Assembly: GCA_043807225.1 (NCBI GenBank) | Contig: JAZDGG010000060.1 | Location: forward strand, 1 to 39,865 | Source of the DNA: a bacterium | GTDB taxonomy: Bacteria > Patescibacteriota > Patescibacteriia > CAZCGY01 | Direction of reading: 5' to 3' | DNA: 39,865 bases | Part shown: piece by piece, positions 2,361 through 10,215 of the stretch | Numbering within the stretch: the first letter of the stretch is position 1 | Layout of the letters: every line of letters starts with the position of its first letter | Made by a program: the position numbers and the translations under genes | The notes under the pieces: generated by a model | The model's input: the letters and a program-made list of their open reading frames with translations, nothing else | The model's database searches: none | What the model was told of the DNA's origin: nothing

Positions 2361-3248
2361 TTATTTTTTTCTCCAGTAGGGGAGAAGGGGGCTGGCCAGA
2401 AAAATCGATGAGTACGTCCCGATGAGAATGCCGACGATCAGCGCGAGGACGAAATACCGGATGGTCTGTCCGCCGAAGAAGTACAGCGCGACGAGAACGA
2501 GGAGTGTTGAAAGCGACGTGTTGATCGATCGCACCAGCGTTTCGTTGACGCTCCGGTCGATGATGTCGACAAGCTGGTCATTCGGGTGCCGCCGCAGTCC
2601 TTCTCTGATGCGGTCAAAGACCACAATGGTATCATGAACTGAAAACCCAAGAACCGTGAGCAGGGCAGTGACAAACAACGCATCGATCTCGATGTGAAAG
2701 ACGTACCCGAGAAACGCGAACGCCCCAAGGGTGATCCCCACATCATGGATGAGCGCGATAAACGCGTTGATGCCGAATGCCCAGCCAGAAATCTGGCCTG
2801 CGGATTTTCGAAACGCCCAGCTGATATACAGAATAATCCCCACGAGAACGAGCACGACCGCCAGAATCGCCTTCTGCTGTAATTCCCGCCCGAGCGTCGG
2901 CCCGACTTCTGAGTAAGAAACTTCCTCGATCTTTCCGTACTTTCCTTTCAGTACGTCAGTCAGTTTTGTGTGCCGATCGGCGTTCAGCTGTTTTGTCCGG
3001 ATGATCACGTTCTTTTCGCCTGCGGATTGCACGCGTGTATCAAGGTAGCCGTTGTCCGACAGCAGTTTTTCGATATCGGCCACGGCCGGTGTCATCCGCT
3101 CGTCAAACTGAACTTGCAGCAGTGATCCGCCCGTAAAATCCGTGCCGAGGTGCAGCCCGCCGAGCAGAAGAAAAACCAGCCCGCCCGCTACAAGCAAAAA
3201 CGAGAATCCGAACCAAAGATATCGATAGCGCACTACTCTCAGCATCAT
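2361..3248 (-). CDS. secF: Protein translocase subunit SecF
   Basis: LGTDFTGG, VGPTLGRELQ, HDV, GFSVHDTIVVFDRIRE, RSINTS, GTYSSIF. Start overlaps the secD stop (ATGA). Confidence 0.97.
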   Translation of the reverse strand: MMLRVVRYRYLWFGFSFLLVAGGLVFLLLGGLHLGTDFTGGSLLQVQFDERMTPAVADIEKLLSDNGYLDTRVQSAGEKNVIIRTKQLNADRHTKLTDVLKGKYGKIEEVSYSEVGPTLGRELQQKAILAVVLVLVGIILYISWAFRKSAGQISGWAFGINAFIALIHDVGITLGAFAFLGYVFHIEIDALFVTALLTVLGFSVHDTIVVFDRIREGLRRHPNDQLVDIIDRSVNETLVRSINTSLSTLLVLVALYFFGGQTIRYFVLALIVGILIGTYSSIFLASPLLPYWRKK

Positions 3249-4960
3249 GGCTTTTCTTGATCAAGCTGCTTCACGCCGAGGAACCCGGTATGTTTCTGCA
3301 GCCACCGGCCGGCGATCAGCCGGAGGAACGTCCGCGTGACGGTGATTGCCGAAAACATGCTGATGAGAATGCCAATGACGAGGGTGATGGCAAATCCCTG
3401 CACGAGACTCGTCCCAAACCACGCGAGGATGAGGCAGGTGATAATTGAAGAGACATTTGAATCCCGGATCGACAGCCATGCGCGGGCAAAACCCTGCTCG
3501 ATTGCAAGATCCAGGGGTTTTCCCTCCCGCAGTTCTTCCTTCATGCGTTCAAAAATGAGCACGTTGGCATCAACAGCCATCCCAATGGAAAGAATGAACC
3601 CCGCGATACCGGCGAGCGTTAACGTCACCGGCCAGAGCTTAAAGATGGCAAGCACAAGAAGCGAATAGATCCCAAGGGCAAACACCGAAAGGAGCCCTGG
3701 TAGCCGGTAGTAGAGCACCATGAACACCACGACCAGCGCAAGGCCAAGGAGCCCAGCCGCAAAGCTCCGTTCGATTGATTCCTTCCCAAGCGAAGCACCG
3801 ACCCGCTCTTGAGAGATCAGGGTAATGGGGACCGGAAGCGCACCAGCGGTGAGCCGCGCGGCAAGTTGTTTTGCCTCCTGGAGCGTAAACTTTCCCGTGA
3901 TAACCGCTTGCCCAGTCGTAATCGCCTGCTGGACTGTCGGGATGCTGATCGGCTGGCCGTCGAGATAAATCGCCACGGGCTTTCCGACGTTTCTTTTGGT
4001 GATGTCTCCAAAGAGCTTCTTCCCTTCATCGTTAAACGTCAAACTCACCTCTGGCTCTCCCGTGTTCGGATCAAAGGTCACCGATGCGCTCTTCAGGTGC
4101 TGGCCAGAGAGTCCAGTGTTGACGTAGTCAGATTGCGTTTGCGGCCGAAGGTCGGCTTCGCTCATCGTCTTCAAGAGGATGTGCCGTGCATCGATTTCGG
4201 TGATGGCAGATCCATTGGTATCTTTCCCCTGTCGTGAAGTGATTCGCTTGATGAGGTGATACCCAAAGTCGGATTGTACCAAGTTCTGCGTATATTCCCC
4301 GTCTTTCAGTGCGAGGAGCGCGTCGCGGAACGCTGGAACATAGTTATTCGGATCCTGAAAGCCGAGATCGCCGCCTTTCTTCTCTCCGTCGGTACCCGTG
4401 TTGCCTGGATCCTCTGAATACTGGTCTGCAAGGTTTGCAAAATCCTCGCCCGCTTTCACCTTCGCCAGCACTGTCTTCGCGGTCGCTTCTGCTTGTGTAT
4501 TGGTATCCGCAATCAGCTTCTTTTCATCGTCAGTCAACGGTGCCTGTTCCGTTGCCGCTGGTTGTTCACGAAACTCCAAGAGCGGCGTTTCGCCGATCCT
4601 CGTGATCGCATCGTTCACATCGGTTACCCCTGGCAATTCGACAATAACCCTGCTCGCCCCGCCGGCCGTGCTGGTCTGAACGACCGGTTCCGAAACGCCG
4701 AACGTGTTCACGCGACGCTCGATGACGTCTCGGGTCCCTGCGAGCGCCGACGCGCGGTCCGCTTGGGCGATTTTCGACACGTCCGCTTCGTACACCAACT
4801 GTGCCCCACCCGAGAGGTCAAGGCCGAGGTGAACTTTGAGTTCCTTAAAATAACTCCCGATGCGTATGTTCGGGCCTTTTGGCCAATCAACCAGCCCTGC
4901 GCCGATGGCGAGAAGAAGGATGATGCCAAACGTCAGCCATACTTTTCTTCGTACGGTCAT
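3245..4960 (-). CDS. secD: Protein translocase subunit SecD with an inserted parvulin-type PPIase domain
   Basis: LGLDLSGG, IERRVNTFGVSEP, IVELPG, AIYLDG, GALPVP, VGASLG, GMAVDANVLIFERMKEE, IRDSN. Insert at about aa 133-278 contains parvulin motifs. Confidence 0.97.
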   Translation of the reverse strand: MTVRRKVWLTFGIILLLAIGAGLVDWPKGPNIRIGSYFKELKVHLGLDLSGGAQLVYEADVSKIAQADRASALAGTRDVIERRVNTFGVSEPVVQTSTAGGASRVIVELPGVTDVNDAITRIGETPLLEFREQPAATEQAPLTDDEKKLIADTNTQAEATAKTVLAKVKAGEDFANLADQYSEDPGNTGTDGEKKGGDLGFQDPNNYVPAFRDALLALKDGEYTQNLVQSDFGYHLIKRITSRQGKDTNGSAITEIDARHILLKTMSEADLRPQTQSDYVNTGLSGQHLKSASVTFDPNTGEPEVSLTFNDEGKKLFGDITKRNVGKPVAIYLDGQPISIPTVQQAITTGQAVITGKFTLQEAKQLAARLTAGALPVPITLISQERVGASLGKESIERSFAAGLLGLALVVVFMVLYYRLPGLLSVFALGIYSLLVLAIFKLWPVTLTLAGIAGFILSIGMAVDANVLIFERMKEELREGKPLDLAIEQGFARAWLSIRDSNVSSIITCLILAWFGTSLVQGFAITLVIGILISMFSAITVTRTFLRLIAGRWLQKHTGFLGVKQLDQEKP

Positions 4961-5048: not shown

Positions 5049-6485
5049 TCAAGAAGAAATGATGACCGGCATCCCCACGTCTGCCCACTCGTAGATCCAC
5101 TTTGCATTCGTGAGATCGATGTTCACGCATCCGTGACTCATCCGGTGGCCGAAGTTGTGGTGCCAAAAGGCATAGTGGAGATAGAATGACGGTGCGAATC
5201 GGAGGTTCCATTCAACGTCCTTGATGTCGTAGTTATCCGGATGATTTTCTCCATAGGACCATTCGTAATCCTTCTTCTGAACCTTCGCAAGAATCGAGAA
5301 CGTTCCGGTCGGCGTCGGGTATTTGTTGATCCCCGTTGACACCAGAAACGTCCGAACGACTTTGCCGTTCTCGTACGCATAGAGCCGCTGTTCGCTGATC
5401 CGCACTTCAACGTACTTTTGATACGCCGTACTCCCTTGGATCGTATTCCTGCCAGGCGCGGTGACAATCTTCACGTTGCCGGTCGCCTCCGTTTTTCCAG
5501 TAGCGATATTGACTCCTCCGAGAAAGGATGACGCGTAGGCGAGAAAATTCGTCCCAAGCGGTTTTCCATACGCTTCGAACGCGCGCAGCTGGGGCTTTCC
5601 TCCGCTGGCGAGTCCGACGAGGATTTCGTCACGATGGTCATTGTCCAGATCCCCTGTCGCCACAGAATATCCACCCTGGAAACTTTCCGGCCACCCTTCA
5701 AACTGCCCGATGATCGTCTGCTGCGCGTTTGCGCGATACACCTTAACGAGCGAGCGACCGAAACGGTGAATGGCCGTGATGATTTCCGATTCCTTCCCGC
5801 CATCGACATTCCCAACCGCAACCGCAACGCCCCCGCGGTCCCGATCCGCATACGGGATGATGGAACTCCCGATCTGCTTCCCGTACCTGTTAAAGACCTT
5901 GACCTGGGGCGATGCTCCGACGCCCACGTCGGCAACGATGTCGGCAAAACCATCGCCGTTCACGTCTCCGCACGCGACGTTTACCCCGCCGCGAAAAGAT
6001 TTTGCAAATGCGGCAAATCCGGGCGTGTATTTCACCTCTCCCCATTCAGAGAAAATGCGCACTTGTGACGTTCCCCCCTGGCCTGGTCCGACGAGGATTT
6101 CGTTGATGCCGTCATTATTAAAATCGCACGACGCCACTTTGACCCCACCGCGAAAGTTTTTGGGATAGCCAAAAAACTGCGAGAGGACTTCCCCACTGGA
6201 CGCAAAGACTCTCACCTGCGGTGTTCCGCCCGGCCCTGCGCCGGCAATGATCTCATCGATGCCGTCTCCGTTGACATCTCCGGTCGCAACCGTTGCCCCT
6301 CCGCGGAATCCACTCCCAAACGCCAAAAAGGATTGCTCCTGTACTGACGTCTGTGCGTTATAGATGTGGATGTCCGGCGAGCGGCTATCGTTGGTTGCCG
6401 CTTGCGCGTCTGCAGTCCACAAAAAGCATACACCTACAAGGAGTCCGCAAAAAAGAAAAGTGTCGTTTTTATGAAAAAGAGTCAC
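5049..6485 (-). CDS. Secreted FG-GAP/VCBS-repeat beta-propeller protein with a C-terminal L,D-transpeptidase (YkuD) domain
   Basis: Signal peptide ending ADAQA; six F..F.GG..VA.GD.NGDG..EII repeats; C-terminal EQRLYAYENG...VSTG...TPTGTF...LHYAFW...MSHGCVN with the catalytic His/Cys motif. Confidence 0.9.
   Translation of the reverse strand: MTLFHKNDTFLFCGLLVGVCFLWTADAQAATNDSRSPDIHIYNAQTSVQEQSFLAFGSGFRGGATVATGDVNGDGIDEIIAGAGPGGTPQVRVFASSGEVLSQFFGYPKNFRGGVKVASCDFNNDGINEILVGPGQGGTSQVRIFSEWGEVKYTPGFAAFAKSFRGGVNVACGDVNGDGFADIVADVGVGASPQVKVFNRYGKQIGSSIIPYADRDRGGVAVAVGNVDGGKESEIITAIHRFGRSLVKVYRANAQQTIIGQFEGWPESFQGGYSVATGDLDNDHRDEILVGLASGGKPQLRAFEAYGKPLGTNFLAYASSFLGGVNIATGKTEATGNVKIVTAPGRNTIQGSTAYQKYVEVRISEQRLYAYENGKVVRTFLVSTGINKYPTPTGTFSILAKVQKKDYEWSYGENHPDNYDIKDVEWNLRFAPSFYLHYAFWHHNFGHRMSHGCVNIDLTNAKWIYEWADVGMPVIISS
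5450..6332 (-). repeat. Six protein-level FG-GAP-like repeats of about 50 aa (approximate bounds)
   Basis: Repeat cores: GDVNGDGIDEII, CDFNNDGINEIL, GDVNGDGFADIV, GNVDGGKESEII, GDLDNDHRDEIL, GKTEATGNVKIV. Confidence 0.85.
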
Positions 6486-6737: not shown

Positions 6738-7094
6738 TCATCTTTGCGGATGCGTATCGTTCCCTTTACCAACTCTTGCCGCATACGCAAAATGGTAAAA
6801 ATAACGATCAAGGTCAGCAAGAGGAGTGTGATATTCCTGACCTCCCGCAGCGGCATCACACAGCAATTCCCGCGCGCGAGTGATTTCTTTCAGACGATGC
6901 TGCCAGCGCGGATCTTGAATCGTCAGATCGAGAAGCTCGAGTGCACGGTTGACCGCGGAATGGAATCTCTCTGGATTGTCCGCTTGCCGTTTCAACGCAC
7001 GGGTAACCTCACTCCCGATATTCCCTAATTGTTCGGTGAGCGTGAGCATTTGCCACAGACCGGAAGCGAGGGTGGCGTGCTGATACGACATCAT
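6738..7094 (-). CDS. Small alpha-helical conserved hypothetical protein, partner of the DUF5674 gene
   Basis: 118 aa; EQLGNIGSEVTRA...RALELLDLT...RLKEITRARE. Start overlaps the upstream stop (ATGA). Confidence 0.8.
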   Translation of the reverse strand: MMSYQHATLASGLWQMLTLTEQLGNIGSEVTRALKRQADNPERFHSAVNRALELLDLTIQDPRWQHRLKEITRARELLCDAAAGGQEYHTPLADLDRYFYHFAYAARVGKGNDTHPQR

Positions 7095-7441
7095 ACTTTT
7101 TTTGTGAGCAGTTGAACGATTGCTTTAATCCGCTCCTGAACAGCAGCATCCTCCACGTCGCGTGAGCGATTTCCCTGAGAGGGACGTATATTGATCATGG
7201 AATCGTACTCAATCCATTGATCGTCGGAAAGGTCAGGATACAGATTAATTCCCCAAAGATCTTTCTGCGCGGAACCGCGCTCGATCAGTAATGCTTCTTC
7301 GTCAGCGTGCAATTCTCCGCCAACCGCCATAATCTTCTTTTCGACGTCAACCACCGCCTTGACCATATCACCGAAGCGCTCTTTGGCAAGTTCGCGTAGT
7401 TGTTCTCGAGTAATCTGCTTTTCGATGAGGTGCATGGTCAT
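7091..7441 (-). CDS. DUF5674 family protein
   Basis: FGDMVKAVVDVEKKIMAVGGELHADEE..L...GS.QKDLWGINLYP...IEYDSMINIRPSQGNRSR; family recognised from motifs. Alternative start at 7435. Confidence 0.8.
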   Translation of the reverse strand: MTMHLIEKQITREQLRELAKERFGDMVKAVVDVEKKIMAVGGELHADEEALLIERGSAQKDLWGINLYPDLSDDQWIEYDSMINIRPSQGNRSRDVEDAAVQERIKAIVQLLTKKV

Positions 7442-7473: not shown

Positions 7474-10215
7474 TCACATCTTCTGCGCGGAGAGCCGTCG
7501 ATGCTCTTCCGTTTCGATCATCCCGCACTTCTTGTACTTCTTGCCGGATCCACAGGGGCAAGGATCATTCCTCCCGATGATTTTTCCTTCAGCGTCCTTT
7601 GGTTTTCGGGATGATTGGACTGGTGCGGCTGATGACGACGTCCCGGACGACTGTGGTGCCTGGGTAAAGCTGGTGGTCGCTTCATGCGATTCAGAGAGCT
7701 GCCGTTGTTGCGGCGTCTGAGCTCTGGCGCCGTTCTGCTGCACCCCCGCGACCTTAAACAGCGTGTACACCACTTGGTTCTGAATGCCGCGGCTGAGCTG
7801 ATGAAAGAGCTCAAACGCCTCTTTGCGGTATTCGACGAGCGGATCACGCTGGCCGTACCCGCGGAGCCCGATGCCGCGACGGAGGTGGTCCATCTGATCG
7901 ATGTGCTCGACCCAAAGCGTATCGAGCCCGCGCAGCATGACCGCGCGTTCAATTGCCCCGAGCATCTCCGGGTCACCGATGCGTTGTTCGAAAGCATCAT
8001 ACGTGCCCTTTTCCAGCTTCATCAAATGATTGATGATCGCGTCGCGCGCTTGTACGTCTTGGAGCTTGTCCCCCGCCTTTTCGCGCAGGTCTTCGAGCTT
8101 CAAGCGGTTCGCGAGATCGATCGGGAACATCGTTCCGACGACTTCATAAATCTCGTTAACGTCCCACGCTCCCTCGGCATCGGCGCTCGTATGAAAAGAC
8201 ACCACCTGTTCGATTTCCTGCTCAAACAGTTCTTCGATCATCGTCCGCAATCGCTTTTTCTCGTCATACGTATGCAAAATCTGTTTTCGTCGTTTATAGA
8301 TAACCTCACGGTGTTTATTAATGACATCATCGTACTCGACGAGATGTTTTCGGATGTCGAAGTTATGGCCTTCGACGCGCTTTTGCGCCGATTCGATCGC
8401 CCGAGAAACCATACTGTTTTCAATCGGAAGGTCTTCGGGCAACCCCATACGCTCCATCACGGACTTCATCCGTGTCGAAGAGAAGATGCGCATGAGATCA
8501 TCATCGAGCGAAACGTAAAACTGCGACATGCCCGGATCCCCCTGACGACCCGAGCGCCCACGAAGCTGATTGTCGATTCTCCGCGCCTCATGACGTTCGG
8601 TGCCGAGGACGAACAAGCCGCCGAGCTTTTTGACCTTCTCTGCCGCTTCTCCATCGAAGGGCTTTCCGCCGAGGATGATGTCGACCCCTCGGCCAGCGAT
8701 ATTCGTTGCGAGCGTGACCGCACCCTTTCTGCCGGCTTGTGAAATAATTTGCGCTTCTCGTTCGTGGTTTTTAGCGTTGAGCACTTCATGCGGCACACGC
8801 GCTTCGTGCAATAGCTGCGAGAGCACCTCGTTCTTTTCGATGGAGATCGTGCCAAGAAGGACGGGCTGGCCCTTTCGATGCAGATCCTTCACATGGGAGA
8901 CGATCGCGTGGTATTTTGCGCGCTCGTTGACATAGACGCGATCGGCAAGATCTTTTCGCACCATCGGCCGGTTCGTCGGGATGATCGCGACATCAAGGTT
9001 GTAGATTTTTGCAAACTCTTCGCCTTCCGTCGCCGCGGTGCCGGTCATGCCGGAGAGTTTTGTATACATGCGGAAGTAATTCTGAAAGGTGATGGTCGCC
9101 ATCGTCATGCTCTCTTCTTGAATTTTTACGTTCTCTTTCGCCTCAATCGCTTGATGGAGACCTTCAGAAAAACGCCGCCCGAACATCAACCGTCCGGTAA
9201 ATTCATCGACAATGATCACTTCGCCCTCTTTGACCACGTAGTCCTTGTCGCGATGGAACAACGTACGCGCCTTCAATGCCTGCTCGAGATGATGGACGGT
9301 TTCAATCCCGCGCTCCTCATAGATGTTCCCGACGCCGAGGGCTTTCTCCATCCGCTCAATGCCTTGCTCGGTAAGCGTCGCCGCACGCATTTTCTCGTCG
9401 ACATTGTAATCAACGTTCTCCTGAAGCTGAGAGACTAGTTGCGCAAACTGATAGTACTGTTCCGCCGGTTGCTCCGCGGGGGCAGAGATGATCAGCGGCG
9501 TCCGCGCCTCGTCGATGAGGATGGAGTCAATTTCATCGACAATGCCAAAGTGCTGTCCGCGCTGGACGCGTTCGGCAAGCTCCATCACCATGTTGTCGCG
9601 GAGGTAATCAAAGCCAAACTCATTGTTCGTGCCGTAGGTGATATCCGCGGCGTAGGCTTCTCTTCTACTAACCGGACGGAGGTGCTTTTCGATATCCTCC
9701 GGATCGGCTTGCGGGTCCGGATCATAGAGAAACGCTGCATCATGCTGGATGCAACCGACCGAAAGCCCGAGAAGATGGTGGATTCTCCCCATCCAGACGG
9801 TATCGCGTTTCGCAAGGTAGTCGTTGACGGTCACCACATGAACGCCCTTTCCGCGCAACGCATTGACAAAGCATGGCAGCGTCGCAACGAGCGTCTTCCC
9901 TTCCCCAGTCCGCATTTCTGCGATTTTCCCCTGGTGGATGACGATGCCGCCGAGCAGCTGGACGTCAAAATGGCGCTGCTTGAGCGTCCGTTTCGCCGCC
10001 TCGCGTACCATTGCGAACGCTGCGGGGAGAATGTCGTCCTCGGTGGTATTCTTCGATTGGAGCTCATGCCGAAAACGCTTCGTTTCTTCACGAAGTCGTG
10101 CGTCGCTCATCCCTTCGTAGTGTTTCTCAAGCCCGTTGATTTTTTCAATCAACGGTTGGAGCTGCTTGAGCGCGCGAGCGTTTGCGTCACCAAAAATACG
10201 TGTCAACCAAGACAT
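7474..10215 (-). CDS. secA: Preprotein translocase ATPase SecA
   Basis: MRTGEGKT Walker A, VTVNDYLA, DEIDSILIDEARTPLIIS, NIAGRGVDI, QLRGRSGRQGDPG, C-terminal GRNDPCPCGSGKKYKKC. Confidence 0.99.
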   Translation of the reverse strand: MSWLTRIFGDANARALKQLQPLIEKINGLEKHYEGMSDARLREETKRFRHELQSKNTTEDDILPAAFAMVREAAKRTLKQRHFDVQLLGGIVIHQGKIAEMRTGEGKTLVATLPCFVNALRGKGVHVVTVNDYLAKRDTVWMGRIHHLLGLSVGCIQHDAAFLYDPDPQADPEDIEKHLRPVSRREAYAADITYGTNNEFGFDYLRDNMVMELAERVQRGQHFGIVDEIDSILIDEARTPLIISAPAEQPAEQYYQFAQLVSQLQENVDYNVDEKMRAATLTEQGIERMEKALGVGNIYEERGIETVHHLEQALKARTLFHRDKDYVVKEGEVIIVDEFTGRLMFGRRFSEGLHQAIEAKENVKIQEESMTMATITFQNYFRMYTKLSGMTGTAATEGEEFAKIYNLDVAIIPTNRPMVRKDLADRVYVNERAKYHAIVSHVKDLHRKGQPVLLGTISIEKNEVLSQLLHEARVPHEVLNAKNHEREAQIISQAGRKGAVTLATNIAGRGVDIILGGKPFDGEAAEKVKKLGGLFVLGTERHEARRIDNQLRGRSGRQGDPGMSQFYVSLDDDLMRIFSSTRMKSVMERMGLPEDLPIENSMVSRAIESAQKRVEGHNFDIRKHLVEYDDVINKHREVIYKRRKQILHTYDEKKRLRTMIEELFEQEIEQVVSFHTSADAEGAWDVNEIYEVVGTMFPIDLANRLKLEDLREKAGDKLQDVQARDAIINHLMKLEKGTYDAFEQRIGDPEMLGAIERAVMLRGLDTLWVEHIDQMDHLRRGIGLRGYGQRDPLVEYRKEAFELFHQLSRGIQNQVVYTLFKVAGVQQNGARAQTPQQRQLSESHEATTSFTQAPQSSGTSSSAAPVQSSRKPKDAEGKIIGRNDPCPCGSGKKYKKCGMIETEEHRRLSAQKM

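Follow-up and report, generated by a model that had tools for sequence, protein, structure and literature searches.

A probable circularly permuted parvulin domain inserted in the P1 domain of a patescibacterial SecD

The DNA analyzed here (the window) is a stretch of 39,865 nucleotides from a member of the Patescibacteria (contig JAZDGG010000060.1 of assembly GCA_043807225.1, positions 1 to 39,865), and it encodes on its minus strand a SecD protein of 571 amino acids (aa) that carries a parvulin-type peptidyl-prolyl isomerase (PPIase) domain within its P1 domain. The prevailing view of SecDF is that it draws exported chains from SecYEG. The inserted domain very probably has a permuted parvulin fold, in which the histidine-bearing strand that normally comes first is supplied last. 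As a whole, the observations are best explained by a genuine SecD with a permuted parvulin insert that would act at the translocon exit, an explanation that we consider likely from sequence comparisons.

A parvulin domain within SecD

We found that the protein is, by every sequence comparison made, a genuine SecD. It scores 404.2 bits on the curated SecD equivalog (NCBIfam TIGR01129 secD; cut-off 244.4), with aa 45-546 spanning profile positions 1-397 of 397, and aligns to Thermus thermophilus SecDF (TtSecDF, PDB 3aqp) at E 1e-78, residues 30-117 of 3aqp falling on aa 40-132 and residues 159-428 on aa 283-552. The P1 base (Pfam SecD_1st, aa 76-132, E 7.3e-17), the P1 head (Pfam SecDF_P1_head PF22599, E 1.8e-32, profile 19-114 of 114) and the membrane domain of the resistance-nodulation-division (RND) type follow each other in order, and secF adjoins the gene. 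The conserved motifs of the membrane domain align to TtSecDF, and the protein may enhance export by the proton-motive force (PMF).

A first-pass annotation of the window, made from the letters and open reading frames (ORFs), had proposed that a parvulin is inserted in the SecD P1 domain, and the Pfam matches agree. Between SecD_1st and SecDF_P1_head, both parvulin families score above their gathering thresholds: Rotamase PF00639 at aa 151-239 (E 4.2e-17, 63.3 bits, cut-off 21.7, profile 12-95 of 97) and Rotamase_3 PF13616 at aa 152-240 (E 2.1e-18, 67.4 bits, cut-off 22.5, profile 31-113 of 116). By sequence, the domain thus belongs to the parvulins, and the matches lie well outside what chance could produce. 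All strings that the annotation had quoted are present, in the order in which it quoted them, in the translation of window positions 3248-4960 (minus strand, 571 aa): GETPLLEFRE (to aa 132), AKTVLAKVKAGEDFANLADQYSEDPG, GGDLGF, YVPAFRDALLALKDGEYTQNLVQSDFGYHLIK (to aa 238), EIDARHILLK (aa 255-264) and TGLSGQHLKSA (from aa 282). The insert as annotated, window positions 4127-4564, corresponds to SecD aa 133-278. The parts of the gene and its partner are the following.

3245..4960, minus strand: secD gene including the stop codon, an uninterrupted ORF of 571 aa (P0001)
4565..4960, minus strand: SecD aa 1-132, with the first transmembrane helix (TM1), GG motif, N-terminal P1 base and final strand PLLEFRE (SecD_1st and TtSecDF alignment)
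4511..4564, minus strand: aa 133-150, entry linker and 'LT.EE.K' helix before parvulin helix 1, part of the insert by the fusion-SecD consensus
4241..4510, minus strand: aa 151-240, parvulin body with helices 1-3, beta2 GGDLGF, helix 4, beta3 and beta4 GYHLIK, without a beta1 of its own (Pfam and alignment to SurA P2)
4409..4411, minus strand: D184 codon (YSEDPG), at the Asp/Cys position of parvulin active sites; its partner in the SurA P2 alignment is the D of QDPGS
4271..4273, minus strand: S230 codon, the Ser/Thr at -5 from the beta4 histidine
4256..4258, minus strand: H235 codon, the beta4 histidine (GYH)
4199..4240, minus strand: aa 241-254 (…SRQGKDTNGSAIT), link between beta4 and the trailing strand, whose length variation suggests a hairpin tip
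4166..4198, minus strand: aa 255-265, trailing beta1-type strand EIDARHILLKT, which carries H260 (SurA alignment, conservation and co-variation)
4181..4183, minus strand: H260 codon, the trailing-strand histidine (conservation and co-variation)
4118..4165, minus strand: aa 266-281, MSEADLRPQTQSDYVN, exit linker back into SecD, aligned with 'VTLD.NSQ[WF]..T' of insert-less SecDs
3830..4117, minus strand: aa 282-377, SecDF P1 head subdomain (PF22599; TtSecDF from residue 159)
3314..3823, minus strand: aa 380-549, transmembrane RND-type domain of SecD (Pfam SecD_SecF_C; TtSecDF to residue 428)
2361..3248, minus strand: secF, 295 aa (SecD_SecF_C, E 1.9e-60), whose start overlaps the secD stop by ATGA

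Comparison with SecDs that have no insert locates the insertion site. At this site the window SecD has 150 residues, as against 41 in TtSecDF and approximately 25 in five insert-less Patescibacteria SecDs, where the segment runs '…PLLEFK…AT-VDKNGK-VTLD.NSQF..T.LTG' and is read as a small hairpin. The fusion replaces the tip of this putative hairpin by the series 'LT.EE.K helix - parvulin body - hairpin - ARHILLK', after which SecD resumes at MSEADLRPQTQSDYVNTGLSG. Neither the 'LT.EE.K' helix segment nor the trailing strand has a counterpart in the five insert-less proteins. PLLEFRE was considered as the beta1 strand of the parvulin and rejected, as this strand is covered by the SecD_1st profile and also occurs in SecDs that have no insert.

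Permuted strand order

The order of the elements is not that of canonical parvulins, in which the histidine strand comes first (beta-alpha3-beta-alpha-beta2, as given in PMC2678132). In the window SecD, the Rotamase match begins at profile position 12 of 97, so that the first strand is missing ahead of helix 1, and a beta1-type strand bearing a histidine sits 20 residues past beta4. The best PDB match to the insert is Escherichia coli SurA (E 2.9e-22), with the body aligning best on its second parvulin domain, P2 (49 bits). A second, colinear alignment pairs the insert with the body of the first SurA parvulin domain (SurA P1), the linker that joins P1 to P2 and the strand with which P2 begins, and sets ITEIDARHILLKT against VTEVHARHILLKP. 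The alignment across this SurA junction is repeated by a 64-aa fragment (E 3.7e-05), and residues 2-18 of isolated P2 (4g2p) match the strand by itself (E 0.041); a 36-aa trailing fragment taken by itself has no Pfam match, being too short. Because of these alignments to the first strand of SurA P2, the trailing strand is homologous to parvulin beta1. The pattern of a body followed by the first strand of the next domain looks like what a permutation by duplication and truncation would be expected to leave.

SurA P2 has the corresponding residue at each of the four active-site positions (H260, D184, S230 and H235), so that the two histidines, the Asp/Cys and the Ser/Thr of parvulins are all represented; S230 is the residue that we take to be the active-site Ser/Thr. 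The first-pass claims of a permuted strand order and of two retained histidines (H235 and H260) therefore stand on the sequence evidence, and the domain is filed as a permuted variant rather than as a canonical member of the parvulins. We did not retain the argument that a permutation suits a domain insertion, since canonical parvulins are already inserted in SurA and PrsA.

The same alignments could be taken to mean that ARHILLK is a mere leftover of a lost second tandem parvulin, which does not complete the fold and leaves a three-stranded body or a partly disordered remnant. A truncated tandem would be colinear with SurA P1 body, linker and P2 first strand exactly as the insert is. We nevertheless regard this as very unlikely, for reasons that lie in the conservation of the strand, in the forms that the insert takes in other SecDs and in its recurrence away from SecD.

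Conservation and co-variation of the trailing strand

If the strand were an unconstrained leftover, it should decay. Yet across 68 fusion SecDs (alignment A1), which range down to approximately 51% whole-protein identity to the window SecD (insert-region identity goes down to 36% among the best database matches), H260, I261 and L262 are each conserved in at least 90%, as is D184, and H235 is invariant. In the canonical parvulins described in PMC2678132, the histidines of strands S1 and S4 are hydrogen-bonded, and single mutants destabilise the fold while double mutants restore it. In the fusion SecDs, the trailing-strand histidine likewise changes together with the beta4 histidine: the pair is HH in 56 and NR in 4 of 60 short forms, and among 118 non-identical short forms, obtained by adding the loci of named metagenome-assembled genomes (MAGs), it is HH in 110, NR in 6, HE in 1 and HN in 1.

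Other columns of the strand co-vary with the parvulin body as well. When mutual information with average product correction (MI-APC) was calculated for the 118 short forms, 11 of the 15 top partners of trailing-strand columns lay in beta2 (aa 196-207) or in beta3/beta4 (aa 224-243). This enrichment has a Mann-Whitney p-value of 0.0019, or 0.036 without the non-HH rows; the control windows of helix 1 and of helices 2/3 gave 0.94 and 0.82. In addition, wherever the stretch from beta4 to the strand differs in length, it does so at one point, with 0 to more than 30 extra residues, and this single indel point would be the tip of a hairpin. The shortest spacing from histidine to histidine, 16 residues, fits a tight hairpin and is not what the leftover explanation would lead one to expect. 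Together, these observations support a reading in which the trailing strand is part of the parvulin and would dock between beta4 and beta2.

Several points weigh against this docking. The paired histidine changes trace to a small number of lineages: in the backbone phylogeny described below, N versus R yields 4 independent contrasts, of which 3.6 go the same way and 0 the opposite way (sign test, p ~0.125), and His/His yields 2 pairs (p 1), so that the trend is consistent but the test has little power. The control window of helix 4 also reached a p-value of 0.015 (0.14 without the non-HH rows). The column set was defined from an assumed topology, in which beta2 and beta4 flank beta1 in the canonical sheet. 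The strongest mutual-information pairs across the hairpin, I240-R259, T241-D257 and R243-E255, are offset by 3-4 residues from the His-His register and could be signatures of lineages. Finally, the evidence for the docking comes from sequence. The hairpin pairs were dropped as candidate contacts for being out of register, and the Q244/S251-I253 pairs for being gap artefacts.

Long, degenerate and larger forms of the insert

In 23 long-form SecDs, the insert comprises 245-269 residues in the order body1 - beta1a - body2 - beta1b. Beta1a and body2 follow the canonical order and hold both histidines in all 23, while body1 has lost its histidine in 23 out of 23 and the trailing beta1b keeps it in 8. 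Where body1 has N, beta1b has R (7 out of 7 instances), and where it has E, beta1b has H (6 out of 7). The most economical reading is that the long form would be a degenerate permuted scaffold, made of body1 and the last strand, with an intact canonical parvulin nested in its beta4-to-beta1 connection. The tandem arrangement of the long forms is one observation that a leftover of a lost tandem domain could draw on, together with P0095, which has a helix-1-like stretch after a beta1-like strand. Against this, every form has as many bodies as beta1 strands, and the first body is never preceded by a beta1.

The long-form proteins are 668-731 aa in length (P0020, P0048, P0065 and others; L015-L028). 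Four short forms (L008, L009, L013 and L014; family f2) have the N/R-degenerate domain alone and resemble the scaffold of the long forms alone. In a FastTree phylogeny of the SecD backbone, from which the insert columns were removed, short and long forms are intermixed, with many open forks, and the four N/R short forms are nested within a long-form clade (support 99-100). This topology is consistent with the nested domain having been gained or lost repeatedly. The larger SecDs, with 707-1035 aa (L029-L034 and P0095), have more complex inserts and make up one starred clade of the tree. P0095, from Altimarinota, which NCBI names 'peptidylprolyl isomerase', has a coiled-coil-like linker and an extra beta1 with the helix-1-like stretch.

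Distribution of the fusion

As the window comes from a 90-contig draft genome, a chimeric join of secD and a parvulin gene through assembly or binning has to be weighed, and the first-pass annotation had itself named a misassembly at the junctions as a danger. The chance of such an artefact is negligible. Among the best 120 database matches to aa 125-285, 70 are SecD+Rotamase proteins on separate contigs that have the same uninterrupted frame and the same junctions, and alignments A1 and A2 show both junctions conserved. Of the 401 genomes sampled from the phylum, 24 others belong to the same class, and 23 of these have the fusion (9 short and 14 long forms; none in G046), in some instances on contigs 0.4-1 Mb in length. 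Among named assemblies, a scan kept 80 loci for their near full-length matches across the junctions; their titles include Komeili-, Buchanan-, Magasanik-, Kerfeld-, Veblen-, Falkow-, Kuenen- and Moranbacteria. The architecture is thus family-wide, and misassembly is excluded for practical purposes.

Outside the class, the fusion was seen in four sampled genomes (G077, G298, G376 and G389), and six more have the larger variants of 707-1035 aa. Most other sampled genomes of the phylum encode a SecD of 437-546 aa without insert. Occurrence beyond Patescibacteria was suggested by 25 of the 80 loci, which are labelled Gammaproteobacteria, Bdellovibrionales, Lysobacteraceae or Bathyarchaeia; we did not accept it, as the five genomes checked are only 0.7-1.2 Mb in size. 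The MAGs concerned (L050, L056, L083, L090 and L096) are probably mislabelled and carry a SecD fusion of the Patescibacteria type. An ESM-Atlas cluster labelled Thermodesulfobacteriota consists of 4 members, and we neither accept nor reject its label. Databases annotate both domains automatically, and the proteins are named simply SecD.

Stand-alone parvulins and other PPIases

We searched the genome of the window for a stand-alone PrsA, as the first-pass annotation had advised, and found a PrsA/PpiD-like protein of 385 aa (G000:C22, L001:1315-2472, minus strand; hereafter C22). It has an N-terminal membrane anchor and a SurA_N-like region just below the cut-off. SurA_N-type and Trigger_C profiles match this protein, unlike SecD, in which a Pfam scan for SurA_N, SurA_N_2/3 and Trigger_C gave no match up to E 0.1, which places the fusion protein outside the chaperones of the PrsA/SurA/PpiD type. 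The parvulin part of C22 covers Rotamase profile positions 16-96 and continues with GYHILK … ASDILIR, with approximately 40 residues remaining after the strand: the same permuted order as in the SecD insert. Two of its four active-site positions are altered, with Asp in place of the strand histidine and Ala occupying position -5.

This order is not peculiar to C22. A body followed by the strand is seen in 14 out of 17 single-parvulin matches other than SecD, and among the approximately 80 stand-alone matches listed for the phylum sample (134 further matches lie beyond this set), approximately 55, counted by eye, are colinear through the strand. Because the order recurs in stand-alone PrsA-like proteins without any SecD context, the strand belongs to the parvulin and not to SecD; the recurrence of the unit, with some 40 residues past the strand, is also at odds with a leftover of a tandem domain. 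By the same token, the permutation is not specific to insertion in SecD, since the permuted unit also exists in stand-alone PrsA-like proteins of this genome and of the phylum.

Role of the inserted domain

In the arrangement that we propose, the permuted parvulin would take the place of the tip of the short hairpin that connects the P1 base strand (PLLEF) to the P1 head. Entering the parvulin at helix 1, the chain would run through beta2, helix 4, beta3 and beta4 (GYHLIK), then turn back via a hairpin, supply the normally first strand (ARHILLK) and exit from the end of this strand to the P1 head. The domain would sit on the outer side of the Sec translocon, adjacent to the P1 head that draws substrates out with proton energy, and would there bind unfolded chains as they emerge and catalyse prolyl isomerisation. 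Four sources provide a setting for such a role. According to a review (PMC6028853), the P1 domain of SecDF is thought to bind the emerging chain and to draw on the PMF to move it off the pore. Contact between PpiD and the periplasmic domain of SecD has been reported (PMC9643414), AlphaFold models place the parvulin domains of SurA on the SecDF P1 head (PMC9987972), and the Mycoplasma parvulin lipoprotein Mpn444 cross-links to SecD (bioRxiv 10.1101/2024.09.05.611430).

Binding and prolyl isomerisation are the most likely functions because the four active-site positions match SurA P2. In the short forms, the residue at -5 is S or T in 60 out of 60 and D184 is kept in 58 out of 60, and at least one parvulin with both histidines is kept in 79 out of 83 SecDs. 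We infer that the insert serves as a translocon-tethered holdase/PPIase on chains leaving SecYEG, with catalytic activity and action on translocating chains both predicted from its sequence.

Two sets of observations speak against this assignment. First, the degenerate domain is retained by itself in the four N/R short forms, and the long forms retain a degenerate scaffold; part of the role of the domain must therefore be non-catalytic. Second, the genome encodes a 228-aa cyclophilin with an N-terminal hydrophobic anchor (G000:C55, L047:1486-2172, minus strand), which is probably a second outward-facing PPIase in a genome of approximately 1 Mb, and it also encodes an FKBP in a 434-aa frame. 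With a cyclophilin and an FKBP encoded, the SecD insert is not the sole PPIase of the genome.

Carried further, the first of these sets leads to an alternative in which the inserted parvulin is mainly a non-catalytic holdase or scaffold, like the inactive parvulins of PpiD or SurA P1. It would widen the grip of the P1 head, with isomerisation incidental or absent, and would leave the architecture and the permutation unchanged. As degenerate scaffolds persist in some lineages, a binding or scaffold role applies at least in part. The degenerate first body and trailing strand around the nested parvulin in all 23 long forms, the altered active site of C22 and a description of parvulin histidines as structural rather than strictly catalytic (Bailey et al., as cited in PMC2678132) are in keeping with this alternative. 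We nonetheless consider it unlikely as an account of the window SecD, in which no active-site position deviates from SurA P2; the two histidines are retained in most short forms by both counts given above, and the lineages with a decayed scaffold carry a second, intact parvulin in 23 out of 23 instances, which suggests selection for an intact active site.

We also put forward, as a speculation to which we attach a low probability, that the holdase/PPIase would be coupled to energy. The parvulin would lie on or beside the P1 head, and the conformational cycle of SecD would gate capture, prolyl isomerisation and release, giving an energy-coupled foldase/holdase cycle in a compartment free of ATP. 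The domain would now be tethered at the beta1-helix1 loop, to which the catalytic cleft is adjacent, and the permuted wiring would point this cleft at the substrate path of P1. In the nested long forms, the old domain would have become a pure scaffold for a fresh catalytic one, as a second stage.

Neighboring genes

Directly upstream of secD, window positions 5049-6485 (minus strand) encode a 478-aa protein with a hydrophobic segment at its N-terminus, FG-GAP repeats and then a YkuD L,D-transpeptidase domain (E 1.5e-25). Positions 6738-7441 (minus strand) hold two small overlapping ORFs, of which the 116-aa one is DUF5674 (E 1e-40) and the 118-aa one has no Pfam match. A 913-aa ORF at 7474-10215 (minus strand), two genes upstream of secD, is SecA-like, as judged by eye from the translation, and ends in a Cys-rich C-terminal tail, CPCGSGKKYKKCG.

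Relation to known systems and significance

The window protein shares TM1, the P1 base strand, the P1 head and the six-helix RND-type membrane domain with the SecD and SecDF proteins of known structure (T. thermophilus SecDF, PDB 3AQP/5YHF; Deinococcus, 5XAN; E. coli SecD, 5MG3), and its additional residues relative to TtSecDF and to insert-less Patescibacteria SecDs are the parvulin domain. SurA (E. coli, PDB 1M5Y) has the same H/D/S/H positions, and its P1-to-P2 junction matches the beta4-linker-strand stretch of the insert almost letter for letter; however, SurA has two canonical domains, each with its own leading beta1, as well as N- and C-terminal chaperone segments, whereas the insert has one body without a leading beta1, then a single beta1 strand, and no SurA_N. 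PrsA, the lipoprotein foldase of Bacillus and Staphylococcus, and PpiD, the membrane-anchored chaperone of E. coli, are likewise extracytoplasmic parvulins that work at the Sec exit, but they are separate proteins with a canonical-order parvulin within a chaperone domain, unlike the covalent and permuted arrangement described here. Mpn444 and Mpn436 of Mycoplasma pneumoniae are surface parvulin PPIases of an organism with a minimal genome; the association of Mpn444 with SecD, described in the preprint cited above, is non-covalent, and both are large multidomain lipoproteins whose sequence relation is limited to the parvulin fold. The stand-alone PrsA-like proteins of Patescibacteria, such as C22, share the order of body and strand and have a membrane anchor and a SurA_N-like domain in place of SecD.

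In the literature covered by our full-text search, no permuted parvulin is described, and the literature searched holds no description of a fusion of SecD with a parvulin. The domain would be a circular permutant of the parvulin fold. Its evolutionary route can be read from natural intermediates and derivatives, namely permuted parvulins in stand-alone proteins, scaffolds that have degenerated and canonical domains that are nested. The family-wide covalent fusion provides independent support, of the 'Rosetta-stone' kind, for a partnership between parvulin chaperones and SecDF, which has been reported or modelled for PpiD, SurA, PrsA and Mpn444, and offers a compact system in which to study it. 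A foldase domain in the outward-facing arm of SecD would put a folding helper where exported proteins emerge and, for Patescibacteria with their genomes of approximately 1 Mb, the fusion suggests a way of economising envelope proteostasis.

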